From: Candidatus Latescibacterota bacterium | GTDB lineage: Bacteria > Latescibacterota > UBA2968 > GCA-2709665 | Assembly: GCA_965203805.1 (NCBI GenBank) | Contig: OZ241917.1 | Span: 3,104,001 to 3,168,000 of the forward strand | Reading direction: 5' to 3' | DNA length: 64,000 nucleotides | Shown here: positions 36,855 through 53,215 of the stretch, piece by piece | Layout of the letters: every line of letters starts with the position of its first letter | Position numbering within the stretch: the stretch's first letter is position 1 | The notes under the pieces: generated by a model | Database searches by the model: none | What the model saw: only the letters and a program-made list of their open reading frames with translations | What the model was told of the DNA's origin: nothing | Translations under genes and position numbers: made by a program

Positions 36855-37586
36855 ATGTCAAGACTGAAAGGAAAGGCCGCGCTGGTAACCGGCGGGAATC
36901 AGGGCATCGGAAAAGGAATCGCGCGAGGGCTGGCCAAAGAGGGCGCGGACATCGTGCTGACCGCCAGAACGGTCGGCAAGCTTGAATCGGCGGCGGCAGA
37001 GATCCGGGCGGAAGGCGTGGAGGCGCTGGTCGCGCCCGCCGACGTCACCGACGAATCCCAGGTGGAGGCCGTGTTCGCGCAAACGATGGAACGGTTCGGC
37101 AGGCTGGATGTTCTGGTGAACAACGCGGCCGCCTTTGACGGGGGAAGAATCGACGAGATTTCCGCGTCGTCGTGGGACTGGGCGATGGCGGTGAATCTGC
37201 GCGGGCCCTTCCTGTGCACCCGGGCGGCGTTTCGCATCATGAAAGAACAGGGCGGCGGTCGGATTATCAATATAGGCAGTATTTCCGCGCAGCGGGTTCG
37301 CCCGAATTCGGCGCCGTACAGCACGAGCAAGTTCGGCATCACCGGCCTGACGCATGCCACGGCGCTGGACGGCCGGGACTACGGGATCGTATGCTCCTGC
37401 CTGCACCCCGGCAACACGCTGGTGGAACGACGCGAGGAATCCGACGCGCCCACGGACGACGAACCGATGATGACGGTGGATGAACTGGCGCAGGCCGCGG
37501 TAACCATGGCGACGCTGCCGCTTCATGTCAACATGCTGGAGGCGATCGTCTTGCCCGTCGGACAGCTGTACGTTGGAAGAGGTTGA
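36855..37586 (+). CDS. Short-chain dehydrogenase/reductase
   Basis: TGGNQGIG, NNAA, IGSIS, YSTSK. RBS GGAGG. Confidence 0.92.
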   Translation: MSRLKGKAALVTGGNQGIGKGIARGLAKEGADIVLTARTVGKLESAAAEIRAEGVEALVAPADVTDESQVEAVFAQTMERFGRLDVLVNNAAAFDGGRIDEISASSWDWAMAVNLRGPFLCTRAAFRIMKEQGGGRIINIGSISAQRVRPNSAPYSTSKFGITGLTHATALDGRDYGIVCSCLHPGNTLVERREESDAPTDDEPMMTVDELAQAAVTMATLPLHVNMLEAIVLPVGQLYVGRG

Positions 37587-37610
37587 ATGGGTACGGGCGT
37601 GTTTCCAGGA

Positions 37611-37724
37611 CGACGAGAATCGCAATACGGCGCCGAGACGAAACCCTTCGAAACGGGCGGGAAAGGGCGTCCGGAAGGATATTTCTTCCGTTCACGTCCA
37701 GTGACCTGATGGTTCCTGGAAATC
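37611..37724 (+). repeat. Dispersed conserved intergenic element, partial copy C (5' ~114 nt)
   Basis: Gap-free alignment to 1422-1535 and to the reverse complement of 12173-12286. Shared blocks include GTCCGGAAGGA, TTCACG and GTGACCTGA. Confidence 0.8.
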
Positions 37725-37758
37725 CTGTTGATTCGTATAATCCTGATATTGATTTAGC

Positions 37759-37787
37759 TTGACACTCTCGACGTGATTGTTTAATGT
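37759..37787 (+). promoter_or_regulatory. sigma70 promoter of the aromatic amino acid operon
   Basis: TTGACA-N17-TAATGT. Confidence 0.65.
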
Positions 37788-37866
37788 TAGACCGTTCCTG
37801 CTGGAAAGGCAGGTTGCCGAAACACGGCGCGAGACCGGCAGGACGCTGGATCAAGGAGGATCGAAC

Positions 37867-37974
37867 GTGACGGATCGTGGTCGGAACAGGCTTGCCTGGC
37901 GTGGGTATTTTTACCGTTCCTACCGGTGGTATTACCGGGAGGCCGCGGAACGTCATGTCTGCCCACGCGAGTAA
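37867..37974 (+). CDS. trpL: Attenuator leader peptide rich in Trp/Tyr/Phe (MTDRGRNRLAWRGYFYRSYRWYYREAAERHVCPRE)
   Basis: RBS AAGGAGG 7 nt before GTG. 8 of 13 consecutive codons are aromatic. Followed by a terminator upstream of trpE. Confidence 0.85.
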   Translation: MTDRGRNRLAWRGYFYRSYRWYYREAAERHVCPRE

Positions 37975-37999
37975 ATCGTCAGCAAGTCTGAGAACCTGG

Positions 38000-38028
38000 C
38001 CGTGGGCATCTGCTCACGGTTTTTTTTT
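38000..38028 (+). terminator. Attenuator terminator (3:4 hairpin)
   Basis: CCGTGGGC-ATCT-GCTCACGG followed by T9. Its 5' arm CGTGGGCA is also complementary to TGCCCACG in the leader. Confidence 0.85.
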
Positions 38029-38073
38029 GATCTGCTCGAATTCCGATCCTGCCCTTAATGTCCGGTGAGATTG

Positions 38074-39555
38074 GTGAATACGCCCGATACGAAAACGCTG
38101 AAGACGCTGGCTGAAGGCCGGGGGCTGGTTCCGATTTCCCGCGAGATCCTCGGGGATACGGAAACTCCGGTGTCCGCCTATCTCAAGCTGCGGCCCGGGA
38201 GCCCCTACAGCTTTCTCTTCGAAAGCGTGGAAGGAGGAGAGAAGATCGGGCGTTATTCGTTCCTGGGCGTGGAGCCGTTTCTTGCGTTTCGGTCGTGGAA
38301 ATCCCGGATCGAGGTGGAGGATCTGAAGCGGGGCGGTATTCGCAGATTCGAGGGATCGCCCATTGGCGAACTCCGGCGTTTGCTGAAGAAATATCGTTCT
38401 GCGCAGTTGGACGGCCTGCCCAGGTTCACGGGCGGGGCCGTGGGCTACGTGGGCTACGACGCAGTCCGGCTGATCGAAGATATCCCGGACCGAACGGATG
38501 ACGACCACGGTCTTCCCGACGTTGCGCTGCTGTTCTACGATACGCTTCTTTGCTTCGACAACGCGCGGCAGAAGATTCATCTGATTTCCAACGTGCATAC
38601 GTCCGGCGATATCGACGGCAACCGCCGCGAGGCGGAGGCGAGGATCGATTCGCTGGAAGGGGCCTTGCGCGGGACGATTCCCGCGAACGGTGTTTCCCGG
38701 GAATCGCCGCGCCGCGGAGCGCGCGAGTTCCGGTCCAACACGGAGCGATCTGTCTTCCTGGAGAAGGTGCGGCGCTGCCGGGAGTATATCGTGGCGGGCG
38801 ATATTTTTCAGGTCGTACTCTCCCAGCGCTTCGAGACGGAGGTAACTGCCGGCTCGCTGGACATCTACCGGGCGCTTCGGACGGTGAATCCGTCGCCGTA
38901 CATGTTCCATCTGGATTTGAAGGATGCGCAACTCGTGGGGGCATCTCCCGAACTGCTGGTGCGTGTTGAAAACGGCGTCGTGCAGGTGCGACCGATCGCG
39001 GGAACGCGCTGGCGGGGCGCGACGGAAGCGGAGGATGCCGCCCTGGAGGCGGACTTGCTGGCCGACGAAAAGGAACGCGCGGAGCACATTATGCTTCTGG
39101 ACCTAGGCCGCAACGACGTGGGGCGGGTATCCCGATACGATACGGTACGGGTCACGGAACAGATGGTGATTGAGCGTTATTCTCACGTCATGCATATTGT
39201 TTCGAATGTTCAGGGGCGTCTCAAAGCCGGCGTGGATGCGCTGGATGCGCTCTACGCGTGTTACCCGGCAGGCACGGTTTCCGGCGCGCCCAAGATCCGC
39301 GCGATGGAGATCATCGACGAACTGGAGCCGACTCGCCGAGGGCCTTACTCCGGGGCGGTGGGCTATATTGACTTTTCCGGCAATATGGATACGTGCATTG
39401 CCATTCGTACAATGGTGCTGCAGGGAAGGAAAGCGTACGTTCAGGCGGGCGGGGGCATTGTGTTCGATTCCGTTCCGGAATACGAACACCAGGAAACGGT
39501 AAACAAGGCGAAGGCGCTGTTCAAGGCGGTTGAGTTGGCGGAAGGCGCGTTGTAA
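38074..39555 (+). CDS. trpE: Anthranilate synthase component I
   Basis: [58 protein letters not shown]. Confidence 0.96.
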
Positions 39556-39604
39556 GGGCAACCATGTATGGCGCGATTCCTCAGCAATCACGTTTGATCG
39601 ACCT

Positions 39605-40168
39605 ATGATTCTGGTAATCGACAATTACGATTCGTTCACGTACAATCTGGTTCAGTATCTGGGTGAACTGGGCGCGCGGATGGAAGTATTCCGGAACGAC
39701 CGGATTGCAATGGACCGGATTGACGCGTCCCAACCCGAGAAGGTGGTGATTTCACCCGGTCCATGTACGCCGAACGAGGCGGGAATCTCCGTGGACCTGA
39801 TCCGGCGTTTTACAGGGCGGATTCCGATGCTGGGGGTCTGTCTCGGACATCAGTGCATCGGGCAGGCCTTCGGAGGCAGGGTTGTTCGGGCTCCCGCGAT
39901 TCTTCATGGTAAGGTGTCAGAGATCCATCACGACGGTCGTTCGATTTTCAAGGGGTTGTCACAGCCCTTTATTGCAACGCGATACCATTCGCTGATTGTC
40001 GAACGGGAGAGCCTGCCGGACTGCCTCGAGATATCCGCACAGACACACGACGGTATCATCATGGGACTGCGGCACAGAGAGTACCCGGTTGAGGGCGTTC
40101 AGTTTCATCCGGAGTCGATTCTGACGGCCGAAGGCAAAGTGTTGTTGAAGAATTTCCTGGATGGCTGA
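39605..40168 (+). CDS. trpG: Anthranilate synthase component II (glutamine amidotransferase)
   Basis: [36 protein letters not shown]. Confidence 0.95.
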
Positions 40169-40227: not shown

Positions 40228-41241
40228 ATGGCAATACAGGACGCGATTGCGAAATTGATTGAGGGGCGGGACCTGACCCGCGACCGGACGATCGGGTCGA
40301 TGAACCAGATCATGTCGGGTGAGGCGACCGACGCGCAGATCGGTGCGTTCCTGGTGGCCCTCCGCGTGAAGGGCGAGACCGCCGACGAAATCGCGGGCGC
40401 CGCGGAGGTGATGAGGGAAAAGGCGACGCGCGTTGTGACTCGGCACGCCACGGTGGTGGATACGTGCGGTACCGGAGGTGACGGGGCGGGAACGTTCAAC
40501 ATATCGACAGCGGCGGCTTTCGTGGCGGCCGGCGCCGGGCTGTGTGTTGCCAAACACGGAAACCGCGCGGCGAGCAGCCTGTGCGGCAGCGCCGATGTCC
40601 TGAAAGAACTGGGAGTAAACATCGAAGCGTCGCCGGAGACGACGGGGCGGTGTCTGGATGAGGTTGGCATCGGGTTTCTGTTTGCCCCCGCTCTGCACGG
40701 CGCCATGAAATACGCGATCGGTCCCAGACGCGAAGTCGGTGTGCGTACGATTTTCAACGCTCTGGGGCCGCTGACCAATCCCGCGGGCGCAACCCGGCAC
40801 CTGATCGGCGTCTACAGTCGATCGCTGACCGGCAGGCTTGCCGAGGTGTTGCGCACATTGAAATCGGAACGCGCGTTTGTTGTGCACGGGTTGGACGGGC
40901 TGGACGAAATCACCACGACCGGACCGACGCGGGTGAGCGAGCTGAACGATGGCGCCGTGACAACGTACGAGATCCGACCTGAGGATCTTGGCATCAAAAG
41001 GTCGACGCCCGGTGATCTGGCGGGGGGCAACGCCGAAACCAATGCGTCGATCCTGCGCAGGGTGCTCAATGGTGAGCCCGGTCCGCGGCGGGACATCGTT
41101 GTTTTGAACGCGGCAGCCGCCATCGTAGCCGGTGGTGCGGCGGATGATCTGCAGGCGGGCATCGAACTGGCCGGCGAGACGGTGGATTCGGGGCGGGCAA
41201 TGGATAAGCTGGAAGAACTGAAACGCGCGTCGGCGGGATGA
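40228..41241 (+). CDS. trpD: Anthranilate phosphoribosyltransferase
   Basis: DTCGTGGDG..TFNIST, KHGNRAASS..GSAD, GLDE. Confidence 0.96.
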   Translation: MAIQDAIAKLIEGRDLTRDRTIGSMNQIMSGEATDAQIGAFLVALRVKGETADEIAGAAEVMREKATRVVTRHATVVDTCGTGGDGAGTFNISTAAAFVAAGAGLCVAKHGNRAASSLCGSADVLKELGVNIEASPETTGRCLDEVGIGFLFAPALHGAMKYAIGPRREVGVRTIFNALGPLTNPAGATRHLIGVYSRSLTGRLAEVLRTLKSERAFVVHGLDGLDEITTTGPTRVSELNDGAVTTYEIRPEDLGIKRSTPGDLAGGNAETNASILRRVLNGEPGPRRDIVVLNAAAAIVAGGAADDLQAGIELAGETVDSGRAMDKLEELKRASAG

Positions 41242-42101
41242 ATCGGCCTGCCTGCAGCGCAGGGCACTGCGCAGGCAGGCGGAAGAGTGGCGAGGTATTT
41301 CTGGGACAGGACACCAACATCCTCGATGAAATCGTCGCATATAAACGCCGCGTCGTGACCGAGGCAAAGCAACGGGTATCCCCTGAGGCGTTGCGGAAGC
41401 AGGCAGACCTGGTTCGCCGGCCGGACTCGCTGATGGACAGCCTCACTGCCGGGGAAGAAATCGCGCTGATCGCGGAGATAAAAAAGGCATCTCCGTCCAA
41501 AGGGGTAATCAGGGAGAGTTTCGATCCTGTTGAAATCGGCCGGTCTTACGAGAAAAACGGCGCGGCGGCCATTTCCGTGCTGACGGATGCAAAGTACTTC
41601 CGCGGCTCCGATGCCAGTCTGAAGGCCGTGAGCGAGGCCGTGGAATTGCCGGTACTCCGGAAGGACTTCGTGGTTGATCCGTATCAGATCCACGAGGCCA
41701 GGACAATCGGCGCGTCCGCGGTTTTGCTCATTGTTTCAGCGCTTTCCCCTCGCGAACTGGCAGAGATGCTCGCCGTTTGCAGGGAGTCGCAACTGGACGC
41801 CCTCGTGGAAGTGCACACCCCGGGTGAAGCGAGGATGGCGCTGGATGCAGGCGCGGATCTCGTGGGGGTGAATAACCGCGACCTGAAGACGTTTGCCACG
41901 GATTTGCAGACCACATTCGATCTGCTTGAACATCTGCCGGACGATCTTGTCGTTGTGAGCGAGAGCGGCATCAGGTCCAGAGACCAGGTCGTCCGGTTGA
42001 GGGATGCCGGCGTGGACGCGGTCCTGGTCGGGGAACATCTGATGCGCCAACCCGACGTGGGTCGGGAGCTTCGGGCGTTGTTGGGCATGGAAGGCGGCTG
42101 A
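41238..42101 (+). CDS. trpC: Indole-3-glycerol phosphate synthase
   Basis: IAEIKKASPSKG, ISVLTD, LRKDF, GVNNRDL, SESGI. Exact start uncertain because the N-terminus runs through a palindromic repeat. Confidence 0.95.
   Translation: MNRPACSAGHCAGRRKSGEVFLGQDTNILDEIVAYKRRVVTEAKQRVSPEALRKQADLVRRPDSLMDSLTAGEEIALIAEIKKASPSKGVIRESFDPVEIGRSYEKNGAAAISVLTDAKYFRGSDASLKAVSEAVELPVLRKDFVVDPYQIHEARTIGASAVLLIVSALSPRELAEMLAVCRESQLDALVEVHTPGEARMALDAGADLVGVNNRDLKTFATDLQTTFDLLEHLPDDLVVVSESGIRSRDQVVRLRDAGVDAVLVGEHLMRQPDVGRELRALLGMEGG
41246..41280. repeat. Short palindromic repeat at the trpD/trpC junction
   Basis: GCCTGCCTGC...GCAGGCAGGC 10-bp inverted arms, same end motif as 3980-4016. Confidence 0.5.
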
Positions 42102-42109
42102 TTCAACCT

Positions 42110-42784
42110 ATGGTTCGGGTGAAGATTTGCGGAATTACGAATCCGGAGGATGCGCTCTTTGCGGTCGCACAGGGTGTGGACGCCCTGGGGTTCATCTTCT
42201 ACGAGCGCAGCCCGCGTTACGTGCATCCGGAACGCGTCGGCAGGATCGTCTCGGCGTTGCCGCCTTTCGTGACGCCTGTCGGGGTTTTCGTGAACACGTC
42301 CAGGGAGGAGATCCTGGCAATAGCGCGGCTGACAGGGCTGCGAGCGGTCCAACTGCACGGCGACGAGACGCCCGCCGAATGTCTGGGATATCCGATTCCG
42401 GTCATCCGGGCATTGCGGGTTGGCGACGGATTCGACCCTGCGTCTCTGAGCGACTTTCCGGTAGACACGTTTCTGCTGGATACGGCCAAAAAGGGATGGT
42501 ACGGCGGTACCGGAGAGACGTTTGACTGGCGGGTCGCATCGGCGGCCGCGGCGCACGGGCGGATCATTCTCTCGGGGGGAATCGATCCGTCGAACGTGGC
42601 AGACGCGGTGCGGACGGTGAATCCGTACGCGGTGGACTGCGGCAGCGGCGTCGAGCACACGCCAGGACGGAAGGATCACGACAGAATCGCGGAGTTCTTC
42701 GAAGCGCTCCGCTCGGCAACCGGTGTTCCGTCCGGGAAACAGATCGCCGAAAACCGGCCGGCGACTCGCGAAGATCCGCAATGA
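42110..42784 (+). CDS. trpF: Phosphoribosylanthranilate isomerase
   Basis: VKICGIT, SPRYV, VQLHGDE, GGTGETFDW, GVEHTPGRKD. Confidence 0.95.
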   Translation: MVRVKICGITNPEDALFAVAQGVDALGFIFYERSPRYVHPERVGRIVSALPPFVTPVGVFVNTSREEILAIARLTGLRAVQLHGDETPAECLGYPIPVIRALRVGDGFDPASLSDFPVDTFLLDTAKKGWYGGTGETFDWRVASAAAAHGRIILSGGIDPSNVADAVRTVNPYAVDCGSGVEHTPGRKDHDRIAEFFEALRSATGVPSGKQIAENRPATREDPQ

Positions 42785-42868: not shown

Positions 42869-44131
42869 GTGGACATCATGAAAGATCTGAATTTTCGGGG
42901 ATACGTCTTTCAGGTAACGGACCCGGGCGGCCTTGAAACGCGACTCGACCGGGGGCCGATAACGCTGTATTCGGGATTCGACCCCACGGCGGAAAGCTTG
43001 CACGTCGGCAACCTGATCCCCATACTGGGACTGCGGCGGTTTCAATTGGCCGGGCATCATGCAATCGGGCTGATCGGCGGTGGCACGGGTTTGATTGGCG
43101 ACCCGAGCGGCAGTAAGGAAGAACGCCCGTTGAACCCGCCCGAGCTGATCGCGGAATATACCGGGAAGCTCACGGAGCAACTGGCCAGATTCCTGGATTT
43201 CGAAACGGGAGTCAATCCCGCCCGCGTGGTCAGCAATCTGGGCTGGCTTTCCGAACTGAAGGCGATTGACTTCCTGAGAGACACGGGCAAGCACTTCTCC
43301 GTGGGCTATATGCTGGCGAAAGAGTCCGTGGCTTCGCGGCTGGAGTCCGGGATTTCTTTCACCGAGTTCAGTTATATGGTCATTCAGGCCTATGATTTCA
43401 TGGAGTTGTTTCGGACACACGGGTGTGAACTCCAGATCGGCGGAAGCGATCAGTGGGGCAATATAACAGCGGGAATCGAGTTGATCCGACGGCGGCTGGG
43501 CGGGCAGGCCCACGGCCTGACGTTTCCGCTGCTGCAGAAAGCCGACGGCACCAAGTTCGGCAAGACCGCCTCGGGCACGGTCTGGCTGGACGCGGAAAAG
43601 ACGTCACCGTACCAGCTGTACCAGCACATGATAAATACCGACGACCGGGACGTGGTGACGTTTCTCAAGCTGTTTACCTTTCTGTCCGAAGACGAGATCG
43701 GAAACCTGGAACTGGAGGTGTCGCAACACCCGGAGAAGCGGGAAGCGCAGCGCGTGCTGGCGGAGGAGGTCACCACCCTCGTTCACGACGGCGCCGCCAC
43801 CGGGCGTGCGCACAGGATTTCCGAGGCGTTGTTCTACGGCGATCTGCGCAATCTGAGTGCGAGAGAGATCGAGGAAGGGTTCAGCGACGTGCCGTCTCAC
43901 GCGCTCAACGGCGCGGCGGAAGCGGGTCTGGTCAATCTGCTGGTGGATGCGGGTATTTCATCTTCGATGCGCCAGGCGCGCGAAGACGTCCGGTCAGGCG
44001 CGGTACATGTCAATGGACTGCGCTGCACCGATGTGGGCCGGACCCTTGACCCTGACGACAGGCTCGCAGGCAGATACCTTATAGTACGGCGTGGCAAACG
44101 CCGCTACTTTCTGGTACGCTGGAAACTTTGA
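42869..44131 (+). CDS. tyrS: Tyrosine--tRNA ligase
   Basis: GFDPTAESLHVGN, QAYDF, QIGGSDQWGNI, KFGKT. C-terminal S4-like RRGKR. Confidence 0.96.
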   Translation: MDIMKDLNFRGYVFQVTDPGGLETRLDRGPITLYSGFDPTAESLHVGNLIPILGLRRFQLAGHHAIGLIGGGTGLIGDPSGSKEERPLNPPELIAEYTGKLTEQLARFLDFETGVNPARVVSNLGWLSELKAIDFLRDTGKHFSVGYMLAKESVASRLESGISFTEFSYMVIQAYDFMELFRTHGCELQIGGSDQWGNITAGIELIRRRLGGQAHGLTFPLLQKADGTKFGKTASGTVWLDAEKTSPYQLYQHMINTDDRDVVTFLKLFTFLSEDEIGNLELEVSQHPEKREAQRVLAEEVTTLVHDGAATGRAHRISEALFYGDLRNLSAREIEEGFSDVPSHALNGAAEAGLVNLLVDAGISSSMRQAREDVRSGAVHVNGLRCTDVGRTLDPDDRLAGRYLIVRRGKRRYFLVRWKL

Positions 44132-44227: not shown

Positions 44228-45205
44228 ATGAAAGCACCGTGGATAACCTATCGGCCGGAACTGAAAGTACTCGATTGTACGATTCGTGACGGCGGATTGA
44301 TGAACGACCACCAGTTCTCCGATGATTTCGTGAAGGCGGTTTATGAAACCTGCGTCGACGCGGGTGTCGATTATATGGAAATCGGTTACCGGAACTCCAA
44401 GGAGATGTTTCCCAAAGACCAGTTCGGGGCTTTCCGACACAGCGACGAAGAGGATATCCGGAAGATTACAGGCGACCATGACCCGGAGACAACCGGCCTG
44501 AAGCTCGCCGTTATGGCGGACGCGGGCAAGAGTGACTGGGCGGAAGACATCCTGCCCGCCGGCGACAGCGTCGTCAGTATGGTACGGGTCGCCTGTTATG
44601 TCGAGCAGATTCCCGAGACCGTCGAAATGCTCTGCGACGCCCACGAAAAAGGGTATGAGACCAGTTGCAACATTATGGCCGTCTCCACCGTGCAGGAGGT
44701 GGAGATCGATCAGGCGCTGGAAGTCCTGATCGAGACGCCCGTCGGTACGATCTGCGTCGTAGACAGTTTTGGCGCATTGTACCGCGAGCAGGTGGATATG
44801 CTCATCCGGAAGTATATGGACGCCGTCAGGGGGACGGGGAAGGAAGTGGGCATTCACGCGCACAACAACCAGCAACTTGCATTTGCCAATACCATCGAAG
44901 CGCTCATTCTCGGCGCAAACCGCGTGGATGCCACGGTGGACGGTCTTGGAAGGGGCGCGGGGAATTGCCCTCTGGAGCTGCTGCTGGGTTTCCTCCGCAA
45001 TCCCAAGTTCAAGATCCGACCCGTGTACAAGCTGCTGGAAGAACATTTCGTCAAATTGCGCGAAGAGCTGATGTGGGGGCCTCTCGTTCCATACAATATC
45101 ACGGGGCAGCACAATCAGCATCCCCGCTCGGCAATGGCGCTGCTGGACGGGAAAGACCGCGACCGCTATCTGGCATTCTACGATCAGGTGATGAGGGACA
45201 TCTGA
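44228..45205 (+). CDS. DRE-TIM metallolyase (HMGL-like / 4-hydroxy-2-oxovalerate aldolase-like) protein
   Basis: LDCTIRDGG, VDSFG, GIHAHNN, GLGRGAGN. Confidence 0.8.
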   Translation: MKAPWITYRPELKVLDCTIRDGGLMNDHQFSDDFVKAVYETCVDAGVDYMEIGYRNSKEMFPKDQFGAFRHSDEEDIRKITGDHDPETTGLKLAVMADAGKSDWAEDILPAGDSVVSMVRVACYVEQIPETVEMLCDAHEKGYETSCNIMAVSTVQEVEIDQALEVLIETPVGTICVVDSFGALYREQVDMLIRKYMDAVRGTGKEVGIHAHNNQQLAFANTIEALILGANRVDATVDGLGRGAGNCPLELLLGFLRNPKFKIRPVYKLLEEHFVKLREELMWGPLVPYNITGQHNQHPRSAMALLDGKDRDRYLAFYDQVMRDI

Positions 45206-45304: not shown

Positions 45305-46516
45305 ATGGCACTTCCCAGAGCAGATGAATTTTCCGGCACATTGCCCGATTCCGGGGGGCATTTCGGTCCCTACGGCGGGCGGTACGTGCCTGAGACGTTG
45401 ATGCCGTTGCTGGAGGACCTGGAGGCAGCCTACCGGGACGCCAGGGACCGTCCGGATTTCGCGAAGGAGCTGAACCGGTATCTCAGGGAGTTTGTAGGAA
45501 GGCCGACGCCGCTCTACTACGCGAAACGACTGACAGCGGAACTGGGTGGCGCCCGAATCTATTTGAAGCGGGAGGACCTCGCGCACACCGGCGCGCACAA
45601 GATCAACAACACGATGGGACAGATTCTGCTTGCCAGGCGGATGGGCAAGACGCGGATCATCGCGGAAACCGGCGCGGGCCAGCACGGCGTGGCAACAGCA
45701 ACCGTGGCTGCGATGTTCGGAATGGACTGCGAGATCTACATGGGCACGGAAGACATGGAGCGGCAGGCGCTGAACGTGTTTCGGATGCGGCTCCTCGGCG
45801 CAACGGTCACGGGAGTGGATTCGGGCAGCAGGACGCTGAAGGATGCGATTAACGAAGCCATCCGCGATTGGGTGACGAACGTGGACGATACGTTCTACAT
45901 TTTCGGATCCGTCCTTGGACCTCATCCGTATCCGATGATCGTCCGTGACTTTCAGCGCGTCATCGGAGTGGAGACTCGACAGCAGATCCTGCGGGCCGAG
46001 GGCCGGCTGCCGGAATGTCTTGTCGCGTGCGTTGGCGGCGGCAGCAATTCCATCGGTCTGTTTCATGCATTTCTCGAGGACGCGGACGTACGAATGATCG
46101 GTATCGAAGCGGGCGGGCATGGAATTGACTCGGGCGACCACGCGGCGCGTTTTCAGGGTGGGGATCTGGGCGTGCTGCACGGGGCCAGGATATATCTCCT
46201 GCAGGACGAGGACGGGCAGATCGCGCTGACCCATTCCGTTTCCGCCGGTCTGGATTATTCCGGGGTCGGTCCTGAACACTGCCATCTGCGCGACGCGGGA
46301 CGGATCGAATATGCGTACGCAACCGACGACGAGGCACTGAAGGCCTTCCAGCTGCTGAGCCGTACGGAGGGGATCATCCCCGCCCTGGAAAGCGCGCACG
46401 CGATCGCGTACGTGACAAAAGCCGCGCCTGGCATGGACAGGGATGCCGTTATTGTGGCGAATCTCTCAGGCAGGGGCGACAAAGACGTGCAGCAGGCGGC
46501 GAAGTTCCTGGATTAG
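45305..46516 (+). CDS. trpB: Tryptophan synthase beta chain
   Basis: [40 protein letters not shown]. Confidence 0.97.
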
Positions 46517-46568: not shown

Positions 46569-47381
46569 ATGACAAGAATCGGAAAGCGGTTCGCACTGTT
46601 GAAGAAAATGCGAAGGACCGGATTCGTCGCATATATCACCGCGGGAGATCCGGACCTGGCAACCACCCGCAAACTGGCGCCGGAGCTCGAACGGCGCGGG
46701 GTGGACATTCTCGAGCTGGGGGTGCCTTTCTCCGATCCGCTGGCGGACGGACCGGAGATCCAGCGGGCGTCACAGCGGGCCCTGCGGCGCCGGGTGTCGA
46801 TCGGCGACGTGCTGGATCTGGTGTCGGACCTGCGGCGCGAGACGGAAATACCCATTGTGCTATTTACGTATTTCAATCCGATGCATCGATTCGGTCTTGA
46901 ACGGCTCGTCGACAGGGCGGCAGACGCGGGGGTGGACGGCATTCTGGCGCTGGATCTTCCGCCCGAGGAGGCGGCCGAGTACAAGCGTCTGATGGGTGAA
47001 CGGGGAGTGGACACGGTCTTTCTGATCGCGCCGACGAGCCGCGAGGATCGCATCCGTCGGATCGTGTCATACACCAGCGGATTTGTGTATTACGTGTCGC
47101 GCACGGGCGTTACGGGGGAGCGGGACAGCCTGGAGGAGACACTCGGCGCCAGGGTAGCGACCATCAGACGACATACCTCGCTACCGGTTGCGGTGGGATT
47201 CGGCATTTCAACCCCCGAACAGTCCAGGGAGGTTGCGGGATACGCGGACGCTGTCGTCGTCGGCAGCGCAATCGTCCGGCGAATCGCCGAGCGGCAGACG
47301 GACCCGGATCTCGTTCCTCACATCGGGGCATTCGTAGAAGAACTGGTGCAACCCCTGAAGGGAGCATCCGATGGACCTTGA
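46569..47381 (+). CDS. trpA: Tryptophan synthase alpha chain
   Basis: ELGVPFSDPLADGP, YFNP, SRTGVTG, GFGIS, VGSA. Confidence 0.96.
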   Translation: MTRIGKRFALLKKMRRTGFVAYITAGDPDLATTRKLAPELERRGVDILELGVPFSDPLADGPEIQRASQRALRRRVSIGDVLDLVSDLRRETEIPIVLFTYFNPMHRFGLERLVDRAADAGVDGILALDLPPEEAAEYKRLMGERGVDTVFLIAPTSREDRIRRIVSYTSGFVYYVSRTGVTGERDSLEETLGARVATIRRHTSLPVAVGFGISTPEQSREVAGYADAVVVGSAIVRRIAERQTDPDLVPHIGAFVEELVQPLKGASDGP

Positions 47382-47664
47382 AGACTGGCGGAAGGAAATC
47401 GACGCCCTGGATCAACAGCTTCTGTCGCTACTGAAACGACGCGCCGAATGTGCGCTTCAAATCGGCATGATCAAGCAGACGATCGAACAGCCGATTTACG
47501 CGCCGGAACGCGAGACATCGATCCTCAACCGTATTCGCGAACGGAACGCCGGACCCCTGACCGACGAAGCGGTGCAACGAATATTCCAGCAGATCATCGA
47601 TGAATCCAGGCGGCTCGAACAGGAGCACGGCGAACGGCAGTCCGGAGACGTGAAACATCCCTGA
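47371..47664 (+). CDS. Monofunctional chorismate mutase (AroQ/CM_2)
   Basis: LEDWRKEIDALD..LL.LLKRRA...IG..K...PIYAPERE...I...SR..EQ. Confidence 0.88.
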   Translation: MDLEDWRKEIDALDQQLLSLLKRRAECALQIGMIKQTIEQPIYAPERETSILNRIRERNAGPLTDEAVQRIFQQIIDESRRLEQEHGERQSGDVKHP

Positions 47665-47687
47665 TACATAAACGGAGCATGCGGCGA

Positions 47688-48716
47688 ATGGCCTTTACGA
47701 AAAACATGAAGATTCCCACACCGGAAGCCGTGCTGGAGGAAATGCCGCTTCCGAAGAAACTGAAGGACGTAAAGGAGCAGCGGGATGCGGAGATCAGGGA
47801 CATCTTCGCGCGCAGGAGCCGTAAATTTCTACTGGTGATCGGCCCCTGTTCCGCGCACGATGAAGATGCAGTATGCGAATACGTCTCCAGGCTGGCGAAA
47901 CTGCAGGAGGCGGTCCGTGAATCGCTGGTTCTGGTGCCTCGAATCTATACCAACAAACCCCGCACGACCGGCGAGGGGTACAAGGGCATGGGGCATCAGC
48001 CGGACCCCCGAAAGGCGCCGGACCTGTCCGAAGGCCTTTACGCGGTTCGTCAGATGCACATCCGCGCAGTCGAGGAGTCCCACCTGACGGCGGCCGACGA
48101 AATGCTGTATCCGGGCAATCTGCCGTACGTCGAGGACTTGCTGAGCTATATAGCCGTGGGGGCGCGGTCGGTGGAAAACCAACAGCACCGACTAACCTGC
48201 AGCGGCGTCGACGTCCCCGTTGGAATGAAAAACCCGACGGCGGGCGATCTGTCTGTGATGTTGAACGCGATTCAGGCCTCGCAGATCCCACACGTCTTCA
48301 TCTATAACGGATGGGAAGTCAGCACCAGCGGCAATTCCCTGACACACGCCGTGCTTCGCGGCGCCGTGGACTTCAGCGGGCGCAGTATGCCGAACTATCA
48401 TTTCGAAGACCTCATGTACGCGGCGGCGCTCTATGGTCAACGGCAGCTTGCCAATGCCACGATCGTCGTGGATACGAATCACAACAATTCCGGGAAGCAG
48501 TTCAGCGAACAACCCAGGATCGGATTGGATGTGATCCGCAGCCGACGGAATTCAAAGATACTGTGCGGAATGATCCGCGGGTTGATGGTGGAGAGCTATC
48601 TGGAAGAAGGCTCCCAGAACGTAAACGAAGGCGTGTTCGGCAGATCCATTACCGATCCGTGCCTGGGGTGGGAAGATACCGAGGCGTTCGTAAAGGACCT
48701 GGCGGAGGGGATATGA
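47688..48716 (+). CDS. aroF: DAHP synthase (class I alpha)
   Basis: IGPCS, KPRT, GARS...HR, GMKN, SITDPC. Confidence 0.92.
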   Translation: MAFTKNMKIPTPEAVLEEMPLPKKLKDVKEQRDAEIRDIFARRSRKFLLVIGPCSAHDEDAVCEYVSRLAKLQEAVRESLVLVPRIYTNKPRTTGEGYKGMGHQPDPRKAPDLSEGLYAVRQMHIRAVEESHLTAADEMLYPGNLPYVEDLLSYIAVGARSVENQQHRLTCSGVDVPVGMKNPTAGDLSVMLNAIQASQIPHVFIYNGWEVSTSGNSLTHAVLRGAVDFSGRSMPNYHFEDLMYAAALYGQRQLANATIVVDTNHNNSGKQFSEQPRIGLDVIRSRRNSKILCGMIRGLMVESYLEEGSQNVNEGVFGRSITDPCLGWEDTEAFVKDLAEGI

Positions 48717-48794: not shown

Positions 48795-49907
48795 ATGGCC
48801 AACGATCCTCCGTTTGCGCGTGAGACCATTGCGATTGTGGGTGTGGGCCTGATTGGCGGTTCTCTTGGCGCGGGGTTCAAGAGTCTGGGCATCGGGCGAC
48901 GCATCGTTGGCATCGGCAGGCAGGAGACGCTGGATGCGGCAGGCAATCTGAACGTCATCGACGCGGGCTATCGGTACGAGGAGCTCGCAACCGGGATTCG
49001 CGAAGCCGCGCTCGTCTTCCTCTGCACCCCCATTGCACGTATTCTGGACCTGCTGCCGGAGGTGCTGGCGGCGGCGCGGCAGGATGCGGTCGTGACCGAC
49101 GTGGGCAGCACCAAGCACGCGATTGTTTCCGCCGCGGCAGCCCATCGACGGGTCGGCGTGCATTTCGTGGGCGGGCACCCGATGGCGGGTTCCGAGCACC
49201 GCGGGGTTGGCGCGGCGGATCCGTTCCTGTTTCAGAATGCGATCTACGTACTGACACCCTCGCCGGACACGCCCGATTTCGCGGTCGAAATGCTCTCACG
49301 CCTCGTCAGGACGCTCGGGGCGAGACCGATGAGGATGACGCCCCGGGAACACGACCGGGCGGCGGCGGCGGTAAGTCACCTTCCGCAGATGATGGCCACA
49401 AGCCTGGTTTCCATGATCGGACGGATGACCGAGGCCGAAGGGCTCCCGATTCGGATGGCGGCGGGCGGGTTTCGGGATCTCACGCGCATTGCTTCCAGCC
49501 CGTATGAAATGTGGCGGGATATCTGCCGAACAAACGCGGTCCCGATCCGTGAGATGATCGATCGGTATATCGAGTCGCTGGCGGCGATTCGCGGGGCCGT
49601 GGACGAAGACCGGCTGGAGCAGTCGTTTGCCACTGCGAACCGGGTACGCGGTCAGATCCCGAAGGACTCCAAGGGATTCTTGCATCCCCTGCACGAAATA
49701 CTCCTGGTGGCGGAAGACAAGCCCGGCGTGATCGCCGACGTCGCCCGGACGCTGGCCGCAGCGAGAATCAACATCAACGACATCGAGGTGTTGAACGTCC
49801 GTGAGGGAGAAGGAGGCACCATCCGGATGGGTTTCGATTCACGTCCATGCGCGGAACAGGCCGCAGACATGTTGGGGAAGGCGGGATACAGCGTCAGATT
49901 GCGGTAA
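48795..49907 (+). CDS. tyrA: Prephenate/arogenate dehydrogenase with C-terminal ACT domain
   Basis: GVGLIGGS, DVGSTK, GGHPMAGSE, SHLP, GGFRDLTRIASS. ACT domain EDKPGVIA. Confidence 0.93.
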   Translation: MANDPPFARETIAIVGVGLIGGSLGAGFKSLGIGRRIVGIGRQETLDAAGNLNVIDAGYRYEELATGIREAALVFLCTPIARILDLLPEVLAAARQDAVVTDVGSTKHAIVSAAAAHRRVGVHFVGGHPMAGSEHRGVGAADPFLFQNAIYVLTPSPDTPDFAVEMLSRLVRTLGARPMRMTPREHDRAAAAVSHLPQMMATSLVSMIGRMTEAEGLPIRMAAGGFRDLTRIASSPYEMWRDICRTNAVPIREMIDRYIESLAAIRGAVDEDRLEQSFATANRVRGQIPKDSKGFLHPLHEILLVAEDKPGVIADVARTLAAARININDIEVLNVREGEGGTIRMGFDSRPCAEQAADMLGKAGYSVRLR

Positions 49908-49992: not shown

Positions 49993-51300
49993 TTGGAATT
50001 CACGGGCTCATTGATTACCGAAGGCGCGATCAGCCCTTCATCCGGGCTGGTGGGGACGTGCGACCTCCCCGGCGATGCTGACGTGTCGATAATGGCCCTG
50101 GCGCTATCGTCCAATGCCGATGGCGTCTCCCGGATTCACAGGTGTTCGCGAAAACCCGATGTCGAGCGTGCTGCGGAACTGCTGACGGCACTCGGGATTT
50201 CGGTCGCGTGGGACGCCGAGACCGCGACGGTAACCGGCGGCGACGTCCGGGCGCCCGCCGACGCACTGCATGTGGGCGGGTCCCTGGTTCTGTTTTCCTG
50301 TCTGGCGGGATTGCTGTCTAATGCGCCTTTTGTCACCAGACTCTCCGGGGTCTCGGCGGATGCAGGCGTCGACCGGATCGTCGATGCGCTCCGCAGCCTG
50401 GGCGCCAGCCTGGAGATATCGCACGAGGACGGGATATCGGCGAGTGTCGGAGGGGACAGGTTAACACCCGGATCCTACCGCGCCGGGCTTCCCGAACCGG
50501 CGGTGAAGTGCGGCATGTTGTTGGCCGGTGTGGGTGTGGACGGGCCCGTCGAACTGGTGCAGGACAGCGGTGGGGATGACGATCTGGAAGTGTTGCTGCA
50601 AGCTGCGGGATGCGGGCTGAAAAAGAGGCGGATCAAGGGCGCCGGAGGTCGTCGGCTGACGTTGGAAGGCCCCGCACGGCTCCGCGGCGTGACTCATGAG
50701 TTGCCGGGCGGTTCGGATGCGGCGCTTGTTCTTGCGCTCGCGGCGGCGATGTTGAGTCGTTCCGAATTGACGGTAACTCATATCGGACTGGATTCGATGA
50801 GCCGCAGCATCGTGGACCTGCTGCGCAGAATGAACGTGTCGATGGACGTGGAGCAATACCGGACTGAGTCCGGCTTTCCCGTACGACGGGTCCGGATCGG
50901 GTCGTCGGAATTGCGTGGCGTAAAGATCGCCGGCGCGACTGCCGGGCGCCTTTTGGACGAGCTCCCCATCCTGGCGGCCGCGGGCGCGGTTTCCAGGGGC
51001 GAAACGATCATTCGGAATGCCGAGGCGTTGAGGGACGGCGAGGTAGACTGCATTTCAGTACTGGTGGAAAACCTGAGAAAGATGCAGGTTCAGGTCGGGG
51101 AGATGCCCGACGGACTGGTTGTAAAGGGCGGTCAACCGCAGGGCGCCGAACTGGATGCCGCCGGCGACGCCCGCGTGACATTGGCGCTCACACTGGCTGC
51201 GCTTGCGAGCGAAGGGGAGACCCGTCTGATGAACCCCGGTCCGGTGGACCGGATGTATCCCGGGATCATGGATAGATTGGCCGCGGTTTCAGTCGGATAG
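49993..51300 (+). CDS. aroA: EPSP synthase (AroA)-fold protein with degenerate active site
   Basis: Full-length AroA scaffold (LPGD, LDELPIL, G.T.IRNAE.LR..E.D, GD.R) in the canonical position after tyrA, but substrate-binding motifs are substituted. Confidence 0.75.
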   Translation: MEFTGSLITEGAISPSSGLVGTCDLPGDADVSIMALALSSNADGVSRIHRCSRKPDVERAAELLTALGISVAWDAETATVTGGDVRAPADALHVGGSLVLFSCLAGLLSNAPFVTRLSGVSADAGVDRIVDALRSLGASLEISHEDGISASVGGDRLTPGSYRAGLPEPAVKCGMLLAGVGVDGPVELVQDSGGDDDLEVLLQAAGCGLKKRRIKGAGGRRLTLEGPARLRGVTHELPGGSDAALVLALAAAMLSRSELTVTHIGLDSMSRSIVDLLRRMNVSMDVEQYRTESGFPVRRVRIGSSELRGVKIAGATAGRLLDELPILAAAGAVSRGETIIRNAEALRDGEVDCISVLVENLRKMQVQVGEMPDGLVVKGGQPQGAELDAAGDARVTLALTLAALASEGETRLMNPGPVDRMYPGIMDRLAAVSVG

Positions 51301-51581: not shown

Positions 51582-52460
51582 GTGGGGCTCGTTTTGGGTA
51601 TTGTCTCAACCACGCGGCTGCTGGGAGTGATCGGCGACCCGATTGCCCATTCGCTATCGCCGGACATGCACAATGCGGCCATCGGCGTTCTCGAAACGGA
51701 CTACTGTTACGTGGCATTCCACGTTTTGCCGGACAGGGTTGAATCGGCACTCCGGGGTATGCGTGCATTGCAGATCCGGGGATTGAACGTAACCCTTCCC
51801 CACAAGACCGCGGTGATGGCGCACCTCGATCGGATTTCGGAAGAAGCGCTGGCCGTAGGCGCGGTGAATACGATTTCTTTCGAGGAGGGCGATCTCGTCG
51901 GCTACAATACCGATGTGTACGGGCTGGCCACCGCGCTGGAGCGGACGGCGGGCCTCGCGGTATTGCCGGAGCACTGCGTGATTCTGGGTGCGGGCGGCGT
52001 CGCGAGAGCCGCCGTTTACGCGCTGGCAACGAATGACGACGTGCGCCGCGTGAGCATACTCAATCGGACCGTTGCCCGGGCGGAAGCGCTTGCGCATGAT
52101 ATGGAAAGGATCACGGGAAAGGCAATAGACACGGGCGACCTGACGGCAGACACCCAGTCGAGAGTGTTCGCGGATGCCGGCCTGGTTGTAAACGGGACGT
52201 CGCTGGGGATGGTTCCGGACGTGGAGCGGACGCCGCTGGCCGACACTTCTGCGCTTCACTCTGAACTCGTTCTTTACGATACGGTCTTCAACCCGCTGGA
52301 TACGCTGCTGATGCGGCAGTTCCGGTCCGCGGGCGCGCCGGCTTTTGGTGGACTGGATATGCTCGTGCACCAGGGTGCGCGTTCGTTTGCCATCTGGACG
52401 GGTGTCGAGCCGCCCGTCGACGTGATGAAGCGGGCGATTATCGGACGGTTTCGGGAATAG
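51582..52460 (+). CDS. aroE: Shikimate dehydrogenase
   Basis: GDPIAHSLSP, NVTLPHK, GAVNT, GYNTD, GAGG, MLVHQG. Confidence 0.95.
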   Translation: MGLVLGIVSTTRLLGVIGDPIAHSLSPDMHNAAIGVLETDYCYVAFHVLPDRVESALRGMRALQIRGLNVTLPHKTAVMAHLDRISEEALAVGAVNTISFEEGDLVGYNTDVYGLATALERTAGLAVLPEHCVILGAGGVARAAVYALATNDDVRRVSILNRTVARAEALAHDMERITGKAIDTGDLTADTQSRVFADAGLVVNGTSLGMVPDVERTPLADTSALHSELVLYDTVFNPLDTLLMRQFRSAGAPAFGGLDMLVHQGARSFAIWTGVEPPVDVMKRAIIGRFRE

Positions 52461-52462
52461 CG

Positions 52463-53215
52463 GTGGCTAGCTCCCATCTTCAGGAACGCAATGCCAGGCG
52501 GGCCTTTGTGCGCCAGATGTTCGACGGCATTGCGGGCACCTACGATTTGTTGAACCACCTGTTGAGTGCCGGCGCGGACATCCTCTGGCGGCGATGGACC
52601 ATCGACGCGCTGGCATTGGAACCGGGCTGGTGGATCCTGGACCTTGCAACCGGTACGGGCGACCTGGGTCTCGAAGCGGCTGCACGCGATCCGGGGGTGC
52701 GGGTTGTGGGTGCGGACCTTTCCCGGCCGATGCTGCGGCTGGGAAACAAGAAACAGCAGAAGAGATCCGGCCGGCTTTTTTTTCTTTGCGGAGACGCGGA
52801 GCGGCTGCCGTTTCCCGATGCGCGTTTTCAGGCCGTAACCATTGGCTTCGGGGTACGGAACTTTTCGGACCTGGCGACCGGATTGCGGGAAATATACCGG
52901 GTGATGCGTCCGGGGGGCCGGCTGGCAATCCTGGAATTCTCCCGGCCCAGGGCGTTTCTGTTGCGCAGGGTCTACTTCTTCTATTTCAAATATATCCTGC
53001 CCGGGATCGGCCGGGTCGTTTCCCGGAATCCCCGGGCATATCGGTATCTATACGAATCTGTAATGGGTTTTCCTGAAGGGGACGCATTCCTGAGACGTCT
53101 GGCGCGGGCCGGATTTGTGGAACCTGAGGAACGCCGGTTCTCCTTTGGCATCGCCACACTCTACCTGGCGTTGAAACCGTCTGAAGAGCGGGTAGACGTA
53201 AGACGGGAGACGTGA
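52463..53215 (+). CDS. ubiE: UbiE/MenG family quinone C-methyltransferase
   Basis: MFDGIA..YDLLNHLLS, LDLATGTGD, GDAERLPF, FGVRN, YRYLYES. Confidence 0.9.
   Translation: MASSHLQERNARRAFVRQMFDGIAGTYDLLNHLLSAGADILWRRWTIDALALEPGWWILDLATGTGDLGLEAAARDPGVRVVGADLSRPMLRLGNKKQQKRSGRLFFLCGDAERLPFPDARFQAVTIGFGVRNFSDLATGLREIYRVMRPGGRLAILEFSRPRAFLLRRVYFFYFKYILPGIGRVVSRNPRAYRYLYESVMGFPEGDAFLRRLARAGFVEPEERRFSFGIATLYLALKPSEERVDVRRET

Follow-up and report, generated by a model that had tools for sequence, protein, structure and literature searches.

In a 64,000-nucleotide stretch of Candidatus Latescibacterota DNA (contig OZ241917.1, positions 3,104,001 to 3,168,000; hereafter the window), a short leader rich in aromatic codons precedes a cluster of aromatic amino acid biosynthesis genes that begins with trpE. 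The element, at 37759-38028 on the forward strand, is probably a ribosome-mediated leader-peptide transcription attenuator with a multivalent leader. Direct support comes from its sequence features, from their conservation and folding energetics, and from a link between the codon mix of the leader and the cargo of the operon. Its most likely role is to switch on the aromatic cluster of an uncultured marine bacterium when amino acids are short. A sequence-only reading of this DNA had proposed that one leader senses the charging of all three aromatic tRNAs. Codon conservation and the cargo contrast described below uphold the Tyr and Trp parts of that proposal; the Phe part is weak, with one codon in the window's leader.

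The leader open reading frame (ORF) occupies 37867-37974, with a GTG start and a TAA stop at 37972-37974, and encodes the 35-residue peptide VTDRGRNRLAWRGYFYRSYRWYYREAAERHVCPRE. It contains 2 Trp, 5 Tyr, 1 Phe and 9 Arg residues. A Shine-Dalgarno sequence, AAGGAGG (37853-37859), lies 7 nt upstream of the GTG, and most relatives carry GGAGG, GGAG or AAGGA ahead of the leader start. Codons 11-24 (37897-37938) form the regulatory block and read W R G Y F Y R S Y R W Y Y R. As in known attenuators, the ORF has its own ribosome-binding site and start codon, and it is located between a promoter-like site and the first structural gene. The sequence-only reading had given the GTG-started ORF of 35 codons, its ribosome-binding site and the series W-R-G-Y-F-Y-R-S-Y-R-W-Y-Y at codons 11-23 exactly as they are found here, and homologous ORFs occur in relatives.

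The stretch WRGYFYRSYRWYY, in which 8 of 13 residues are aromatic, is the densest of the 99,286 stop-free 13-residue stretches that the window contains in its six frames. Read in its other two frames, the aromatic-block DNA yields 1 and 4 aromatic residues. Because the block ranks first in this set and its composition is specific to one frame, its aromatic density is beyond chance. Tyr makes up 14% of the leader versus 2.6% of the operon proteins, and Trp 5.7% versus 0.6%.

Four RNA segments in and downstream of the ORF can adopt mutually exclusive pairings. Segment 1 (GCGTGGGTA, 37899-37907) pairs with segment 2 (TGCCCACGC, 37960-37968) to form an anti-antiterminator of nine base pairs, including one G-U. 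Segment 2, which ends 4 nt before the stop codon, can instead pair with segment 3 (CGTGGGCA, 38001-38008) through eight Watson-Crick pairs (37960-37967 with 38001-38008). Segment 3 is also the 5' arm of the terminator, and segment 4 (GCTCACGG, 38012-38019) is its 3' arm; the 3:4 stem has ten pairs with G-U. The intrinsic terminator, which a terminator scan also reports, spans 37998-38028 and consists of a stem (37998-38007/38012-38021), an ATCT loop and a T9 tract (38020-38028). An intrinsic terminator is therefore located between the leader ORF and trpE, and the antiterminator uses its 5' arm. All four segments, the T9 tract and the three complementarities had been listed in the sequence-only reading and are present in the window as described there.

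Folding calculations are consistent with this arrangement. The unconstrained minimum free energy structure of 37790-38030 contains both 1:2 and 3:4 (-99.2 kcal/mol, z -2.1). Folded in isolation, the elements have energies of -15.9 kcal/mol (terminator), -20.4 kcal/mol (2:3 hairpin) and -34.9 kcal/mol (1:2 domain), which is the hierarchy required of an attenuator. An additional internal hairpin covers codons 19-24 (37919-37942), where a CCGGUG/UACCGG stem is extended by CCU/AGG; the fold of 37915-37945 has an energy of -11.8 kcal/mol. This hairpin may serve as a pause or spacer hairpin. In the alignment, two families are out of register at this point.

A translating ribosome was mimicked by removing the RNA through 12 nt past the A-site codon and ending the transcript at 38010, before segment 4. 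The 2:3 pairing then forms with a probability of about 0.9 when the A site is at codons 5-28, with a probability of at most 0.005 at codons 1-3, and with a probability of 0 from codon 30 to the stop. The aromatic codons, at positions 11-23, all fall mid-way in the permissive range of codons 5-28. Folding under ribosome constraints had been suggested in the earlier reading, together with the claim that a ribosome at the leader stop would mask segment 2, and the simulated footprint behaves in this manner. A looser measure, which scores the terminator arm as paired with anything upstream, has a baseline of 0.3-0.5 at the stop and was not relied on.

The attenuator is conserved throughout one order of the phylum. 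TrpE searches in 41 relatives yielded 30 trpE loci, and an aromatic-rich leader ORF followed by a terminator of the form CGTGGGCA-N4-GCTCACG plus T run is present at 29 of the 30 trpE loci of the order, as the sequence-only reading had anticipated when it proposed a search upstream of trpE in related genomes. One locus (L022, genome G036) was left out of the counts because its contig starts 137 nt before trpE. A covariance model (R1) was built from these 29 sequences, with the source genome, a metagenome-assembled genome, designated G000. It matches 48 of 151 genomes sampled from the phylum, exactly once in each and within a single order: the source genome, 18 of 18 genomes in one family (f1) and 29 of 30 in another (f2), with 0 of 102 in the other twelve families. 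The sole miss in f2 is the genome of L022. The leader set used below comprises 51 matches (set A3); 47 antisense or partial terminator matches seen at E-values up to 1 were excluded. A scan of genome contigs with the terminator pattern returned 66 stretches, 19 of them from Latescibacter*, and the other 47 were taken as chance terminators. Sponge, coral and marine metagenome runs also contain the stretch.

Despite wide sequence divergence, all three kinds of aromatic codon on which the sequence-only reading was founded are retained in every leader of the order. All 51 keep at least one Trp, at least two Tyr and at least one Phe codon, and Tyr codons outnumber Trp codons in each of them. Per leader there are 1-2 Trp (median 2), 2-6 Tyr (median 5), 1-5 Phe (median 3) and 3-9 Arg codons. 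Representative peptides are WRGYFYRSYRWYYRE...VCPRE from the window's genus, FFWRYFWYYRYYRQ...CMPTL, MNAFATYFWYFWRRFDGRYYYYRRPSKSVVCPAF and MINARDSFYWHFGFRRFGYYSAKVQELRLPA.

Two kinds of constraint can be distinguished in these leaders. The core of segment 2, UGCCC, which takes the form UGUCC in 17 leaders, is present in all 51. It is read as Cys-Pro in some lineages and, one frame off, as Met/Leu-Pro in others, and its retention in two different reading frames identifies it as an RNA constraint. The aromatic block, judged by its substitutions, has the character of a codon constraint. Among 15 members of the window's genus, Tyr codons 14, 16, 19, 22 and 23 undergo only TAT/TAC or Tyr-to-Phe changes. 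At positions 12, 17, 20 and 24 Arg is kept without exception, two of these codons varying synonymously, and the N- and C-terminal parts of the leader vary freely. Neither Trp position is kept throughout the genus: W11 is lost from 2 of 15 members and W21 from 5 of 15. The stop codon begins 12 nt past the start of UGCCC in the window and between -10 and +12 nt from it across the 51 leaders, a position at which a terminating ribosome would mask segment 2, while the regulatory codons lie far enough upstream to leave it free.

The RNA pairings are conserved to different degrees in the 51 sequences. In the terminator, 98% of cells in the alignment are paired and 4 of the 11 pairs carry compensatory changes. 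In 2:3, the five core pairs form in every sequence and the three outer ones in roughly half; taken together, 81% of the 2:3 cells are paired, versus 35-50% when the partner columns are slid. The 2:3 duplex has a median energy of -15.8 kcal/mol, and its z falls below -2 for 30 of the 51 sequences. For segments 1 and 2, the general feature is a four-pair GGCG:UGCC core, which includes the conserved Trp-Arg codons and is kept in 97-100% of the sequences.

The codon content of these leaders can be compared with the genes that they precede. In the order, the arrangement trpEGDCF-tyrS-...-trpBA-CM-DAHPS-tyrA-(aroA)-aroE-ubiE-argS (CM, chorismate mutase; DAHPS, 3-deoxy-D-arabino-heptulosonate 7-phosphate (DAHP) synthase) is found in 13 of 13 loci from 10 genera, and tyrS is present at its operon position in all 13. 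Matches from tblastn that covered less than half of the query were dropped from the gene-order counts, so that aroA is unlisted in 3 of these 13 loci and CM in 1 of the 10 loci mentioned next. In the sister family f3, an orthologous trpE (E-value of 1e-100 or better) is found in 19 of 71 genomes, representing 7 of 18 genera, and the operon is trpEGDC-trpS-(CM)-tyrA-aroA-aroE-argS in 10 of 10 loci from 7 genera. The f3 trpS was confirmed in two loci (TIGR00233, approximately 370 bits). Each of these 19 f3 genomes has a homologous leader, organised around R-(Y)-W-W-(W)-R-F-W, with 2-4 Trp, 0-2 Tyr and 0-3 Phe codons. Trp codons equal or outnumber Tyr codons in 19 of 19 of these leaders from the trpS-carrying family, whereas Tyr codons outnumber Trp codons in all 51 leaders from the order with tyrS. 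The codon mix of the leader thus tracks what the operon carries, with Tyr-rich leaders before tyrS and Trp-rich leaders before trpS, a rare natural contrast in which leader codons visibly follow the cargo.

The source genome provides a further comparison. Its separate trpS gene (L274, G000:C1:4136095-4140084, minus strand, approximately 2524-2652) is preceded by the leader MAARGIHSGCWWRHDFNRTGRLTAC, which has two adjacent Trp codons and no Tyr, with a CTTGACA box upstream. The terminator of this leader, CCCUGCCG-loop-CGGCGGGG followed by a U run, has an energy of -21.6 kcal/mol. From its sequence it looks like a plain Trp attenuator, and the same organism would thus also use single-amino-acid leaders. 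Among the matches listed for trpE in other phyla, which comprise 80 loci, the recognisable leaders are Trp runs, and the only Tyr-rich leader in this listed background comes from the Latescibacterota clade.

Two side observations concern the distribution of the f3 genes. In genus g18 of that family this trpE is found in 0 of 26 genomes, several of which are single contigs; f3 lineages of this type may make no Trp or may use a different trpE. In addition, a contig publicly labelled 'uncultured Gemmatimonadaceae' (L032) encodes a leader peptide identical to that of an f3 genome (G116, L246), and its label disagrees with the genome-based placement.

An ordinary attenuator responding to Trp alone, with Tyr, Phe and Arg codons that reflect RNA structure or composition and carry no regulatory meaning, would be in keeping with an operon made up mostly of trp genes and with the Trp-run leaders that are the common type before trpE among the matches listed from other phyla. 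Every one of the 51 leaders has at least one Trp codon, and codon 11 (Trp, UGG) takes part in the conserved GGCG:UGCC pairing. The pattern of change within the leaders argues against this explanation: W11 and W21 are each absent from some genus members, while the five Tyr codons never leave the aromatic class and vary synonymously. The predominance of Tyr codons in the tyrS-carrying order, seen in 0 of 19 leaders of the trpS family, and the Trp-Trp leader without Tyr that the source genome places before trpS, also count against it. Moreover, any codon within positions 5-28 should relieve termination when its tRNA is uncharged. Control by Trp alone is accordingly considered unlikely.

Two other explanations, each judged very improbable, move the sensor away from the decoding of the leader codons. 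The RNA might be a ligand-, tRNA- or protein-binding leader (a riboswitch, T-box or TRAP-like element) in which the ORF is incidental. Its invariant UGCCC and GGGCA elements are what such a leader might display, and GGTGGTATTACCGG bears a superficial likeness to the T-box core. However, no Rfam model, T-box included, that would identify a binding leader matches 37500-38300 at E-values up to 10, and the ORF, its start, its Shine-Dalgarno sequence and a stop beside segment 2 are kept in 51 of 51 sequences while the peptide diverges. The synonymous or Tyr-to-Phe substitutions at the Tyr codons, and an aromatic enrichment confined to one frame, likewise count against an incidental ORF. The T-box candidate suspected from GGTGGTATTACCGG was rejected, as it has no Rfam match and the stretch is conserved as codons. 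The only Rfam match in the 37500-38300 interval at E-values up to 10 is SorY (15.3 bits versus a gathering threshold of 111, E 2.2); it was rejected as merely the terminator hairpin matched at chance level. At gathering thresholds, the whole 64-kb window has no Rfam match, Trp_leader included. Alternatively, the product might be a TnaC-like arrest peptide that senses a free amino acid in the ribosome tunnel instead of tRNA charging. The conserved Cys-Pro or Met/Leu-Pro near the stop, and the invariant Arg and aromatic residues of the core, would suit an arrest peptide. Yet the C-terminal conservation follows the RNA motif UGCCC in two frames (VCP versus MP/LP), so the Pro motif is not a peptide constraint, and outside the codon classes the peptide is not conserved between families. 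The layout also predicts induction by starvation, which fits a biosynthetic operon; sensing of a free amino acid would induce on excess.

The multivalent attenuator remains the preferred explanation, and the observations that weigh against it or against some of its parts fall into several groups. The sequence-only reading had proposed a search for covarying 1:2, 2:3 and 3:4 stems in relatives, and compensatory changes are seen in the terminator. The antiterminator 2:3 is conserved and shows no compensatory change in the 51 sequences. Over the order as a whole, the proposed 1:2 register has only 53% of its cells paired, essentially within the genus, and the 1:2 duplex energies barely beat those of shuffled sequences (median z -1.3, with 15 of 51 below -2). 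In the full transcript at equilibrium, the terminator has a probability of 0.68-0.89 with the ribosome at codons 11-23 and 0.26 at F15. Because the terminator wins at equilibrium at most stall positions, antitermination must be kinetic. The switch in classical attenuators is likewise kinetic.

Other points of this kind involve the promoter, the Phe codon and the extent of control. The promoter-like site (37759-37787) has a -35 box TTGACA (37759-37764), a 17-nt spacer and the hexamer TAATGT (37782-37787). The sequence and spacing given for it in the earlier reading are correct, but TAATGT is identical to the TATAAT consensus at 3 of 6 positions, a weak -10 box, and a promoter scan of the window does not include this site among its calls. 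An alternative -10 box, TTTAAT (37780-37785), would leave a spacer of 15 nt. The position of the boxes is conserved: in 23 of 29 related loci, TTGAC(A) plus TTGTT(T)A(A/T) precedes the terminator by a conserved distance of 190-250 nt, and L006 shows the site. The putative promoter is the weakest item of the anatomy. Phe is not enriched, with one leader codon (2.9%) versus 3.4% in the operon proteins. Since this single codon is at about the proteome frequency, Phe sensing is the weakest claim, and Phe is the weakest of the three aromatic inputs in the window's leader. The intergenic gaps of 282 nt between aroA and aroE and 308 nt between ubiE and argS count against a single transcript, and the tyrS/trpS comparison is one evolutionary contrast, not many. 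Finally, the f1 genera apart from the window's own share a conserved CTTGACAA box, located past the terminator and ahead of trpE, that could act as a further promoter, or as an operator, and bypass the attenuator; the window's genus has no such box.

This CTTGACAA box is followed by GCTTATT(T/A)T...ATAGAATTCTTACAGTTAT (loci L015, L016, L017, L018, L019, L021 and L023). A separate peculiarity of the same spacer is seen at two f2 loci (L025 and L027), where tandem CATCTGCG(T/C)CCATCTGCG-like repeats fill the approximately 200 nt between terminator and trpE; other species are without these repeats.

Operation of the multivalent attenuator can be envisaged as follows. Transcription would begin a few bases past 37787. 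A ribosome would load at AAGGAGG/GTG and translate the 35 codons while RNA polymerase heads for the T9 terminator. With ample charged tRNA, the ribosome should reach the stop at 37972 and cover segment 2 (37960-37968). The 3:4 terminator would then fold, leaving a transcript end near 38025-38028. When tRNA-Trp or tRNA-Tyr, or with weaker effect tRNA-Phe, is poorly charged, the ribosome would stall within codons 11-23, where it covers or isolates segment 1. The free segment 2 could then pair with segment 3 before segment 4 is made. Formation of 2:3 would permit read-through into trpEGDCF-tyrS-trpBA-CM-DAHPS-tyrA-aroA and probably aroE-ubiE-argS. The interleaved Arg codons would act like the aromatic ones. 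If no ribosome loads, 1:2 and 3:4 are both predicted to form, and transcription would terminate. Translation of the leader ORF, termination at the T tract and relief of termination by stalling at Tyr, Phe or Arg codons are thus predicted properties of this element.

The RNA data consist solely of Logan contigs from three RNA runs, which derive from a relative approximately 95% identical to the window. One 208-nt contig (run X19) lies on 37829-38028 and ends at the last T of the T9 tract, and a 203-nt contig (run X20) lies on 37813-38007. Both come from one study, and the relative differs from the window by 10-13 letters. None of the four RNA runs has a contig over 38029-38358. Because contigs cannot show transcript ends or levels, DNA carry-over is possible and a T run can break an assembly, neither these contigs nor their absence downstream is counted as evidence for termination or transcription.

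The genes downstream of the attenuator all lie on the forward strand. They begin with trpE (38065-39555), trpG (39530-40168), trpD (40228-41241), trpC (41238-42101) and trpF (42110-42784), each with an NCBIfam match above its curated cut-off. The tyrS gene (42869-44131; TIGR00234, 381 bits) encodes the only match to tyrosine-tRNA ligase above the family cut-off in a search of the whole genome. It is followed by an HMGL-like or aldolase-like gene (44228-45205; PF00682, with all NCBIfam matches below their cut-offs) and then, with family matches, by trpB (45305-46516), trpA (46569-47381), an AroQ chorismate mutase gene (47371-47664), a type I DAHP synthase gene (47679-48716) and the prephenate dehydrogenase gene tyrA (48795-49907). 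The next gene (49993-51300) is aroA-like; its match to 5-enolpyruvylshikimate-3-phosphate synthase, at 153.9 bits, is below the curated cut-off of 287. The shikimate dehydrogenase gene aroE (51582-52460), a UbiE-family methyltransferase gene (52463-53215) and the arginine-tRNA ligase gene argS (53524-55227) complete the cluster on the same strand and in conserved order. Terminator-like sites inside the cluster number 18 versus 13.4 +/- 3.4 in shuffled sequence, which is no excess. The whole cluster would be transcribed as a unit, probably with aroE-ubiE-argS included.

Some features of these genes differ between relatives. In two genera, the tyrS at this position is divergent (L231, 4923-6146, plus strand; L234, 11580-12791, minus strand), with 27-31% identity to the window's tyrS and TIGR00234 scores of 367-382 bits. 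It is an in-place replacement that leaves the operon still with a tyrS. Of the 13 loci of the order, 4 (the window, L235, L236 and L239) have the HMGL-like gene, which follows tyrS and precedes trpB and is 81-89% identical between two families, as compared with 57-83% for neighbouring genes; it is either unusually conserved or recently exchanged. Elsewhere in the same genome, pheA lies approximately 54 kb before the window start and the separate trpS approximately 1 Mb away. Upstream of pheA (L244, G000:C1:3048197-3051730, approximately 1400-1470) there is a T10 tract with an in-frame Phe-rich stretch, YFDFSKFGRYRFFF. A Phe leader at this site was rejected for want of a usable start codon, and the T10 tract is probably the terminator of a preceding deacetylase-like gene.

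The presence of argS draws attention to the Arg codons of the leader. Arg accounts for 26% of the window leader versus 8.6% of the operon proteins, and six Arg codons lie within the permissive range. The cluster ends with argS in 13 of 13 loci of the order and in 9 of 10 f3 loci, the tenth stretch ending inside aroE; the gap between argS and the gene ahead of it is often a mere 6-40 nt. The nine Arg codons counted in the sequence-only reading are correct, and they gain weight from the invariant core Arg codons in the genus and from the position of argS. The trpS leader of the source genome is also 16% Arg, which means that Arg enrichment may be a general habit of these leaders. In E. coli trpL, an Arg codon directly follows the two Trp codons, and Arg starvation is reported to relieve termination. 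Sensing of Arg by the leader is offered here as a tentative suggestion. Equally speculative is a rewritable four-input register (Trp, Tyr, Phe and Arg) that mirrors the full cargo of the operon, ligase genes included, being dominated by Tyr with tyrS and by Trp with trpS, and that governs the approximately 17-kb cluster together with argS. If it were true, one attenuator would couple three amino acid supplies and two tRNA ligases.

The closest architectural counterparts are the trpL and pheL attenuators of E. coli, each of which senses one amino acid and controls one terminal branch. The Latescibacterota element shares with them a probably translated leader with cognate codons, exclusive 1:2, 2:3 and 3:4 pairings in the window (of which the 1:2 register is specific to its genus), a T-tract terminator before the first biosynthetic gene and a stop codon placed so that the ribosome can cover segment 2. 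It differs in mixing Trp, Tyr, Phe and also Arg codons, and in heading a cluster where genes of the Trp branch stand together with those for common shikimate steps and with tyrA, tyrS and argS. Multivalent leaders are known from the thr and ilv operons of enterobacteria, which respond to Thr/Ile and to branched-chain amino acids. There, too, the controlled genes serve the pathways of several amino acids, each with its codons in the one leader, but no aromatic amino acids and no tRNA ligase genes are involved. In the aromatic supraoperon of Bacillus subtilis, trp genes are also embedded within an aro/tyrA cluster and controlled by termination and antitermination in a leader. The sensor there is the TRAP protein, which binds Trp, and not a translated leader as proposed here; no TRAP-like repeat pattern was noticed in the window, where no search aimed at one was made.

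A mixed aromatic leader has been described in Corynebacterium glutamicum, where aroR, upstream of aroF, contains Phe-Tyr-Phe and controls a DAHP synthase operon through ribosome stalling, reportedly in response to limitation for Phe and not Tyr (PMC11802643). The likeness to the Latescibacterota leader, drawn from the description of aroR and not from its sequence, lies in the mixed aromatic codons and ribosome-stalling control. By contrast, aroR has three such codons and no Trp, and is not known to control trp genes or a tRNA ligase. In the literature searched, it is the only mixed aromatic leader that was found. Genes for tRNA ligases can also be regulated in this way: E. coli pheST (PMC11802643) and Streptomyces trpS and leuS (PMC1262725) are described as lying behind leader-peptide attenuators. 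In these cases each ligase follows a leader with its own codons, and the separate trpS of the source genome is of the same simple kind. In the cluster studied here, tyrS and possibly argS are located inside a biosynthetic supraoperon behind one shared leader.

The full-text literature searched, with subscription journals and supplements outside its scope, yielded no leader for Trp, Tyr and Phe together and no attenuation in Latescibacterota. To our knowledge, known leaders respond to one amino acid or to one chemically linked set, such as Thr/Ile or the branched-chain amino acids, and we know of no cultured members of Latescibacterota and of nothing reported on their gene regulation. The element suggests that sigma-70-type, Shine-Dalgarno and intrinsic-terminator signals of canonical form are in use in this phylum. 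Set beside the systems above, its proposed mechanism is classical. What would be new is the use of one leader for Trp and Tyr, more weakly for Phe and perhaps for Arg, at the head of a cluster in which the Trp branch is combined with the common shikimate pathway, with tyrA and with the sole tyrS of the cell.

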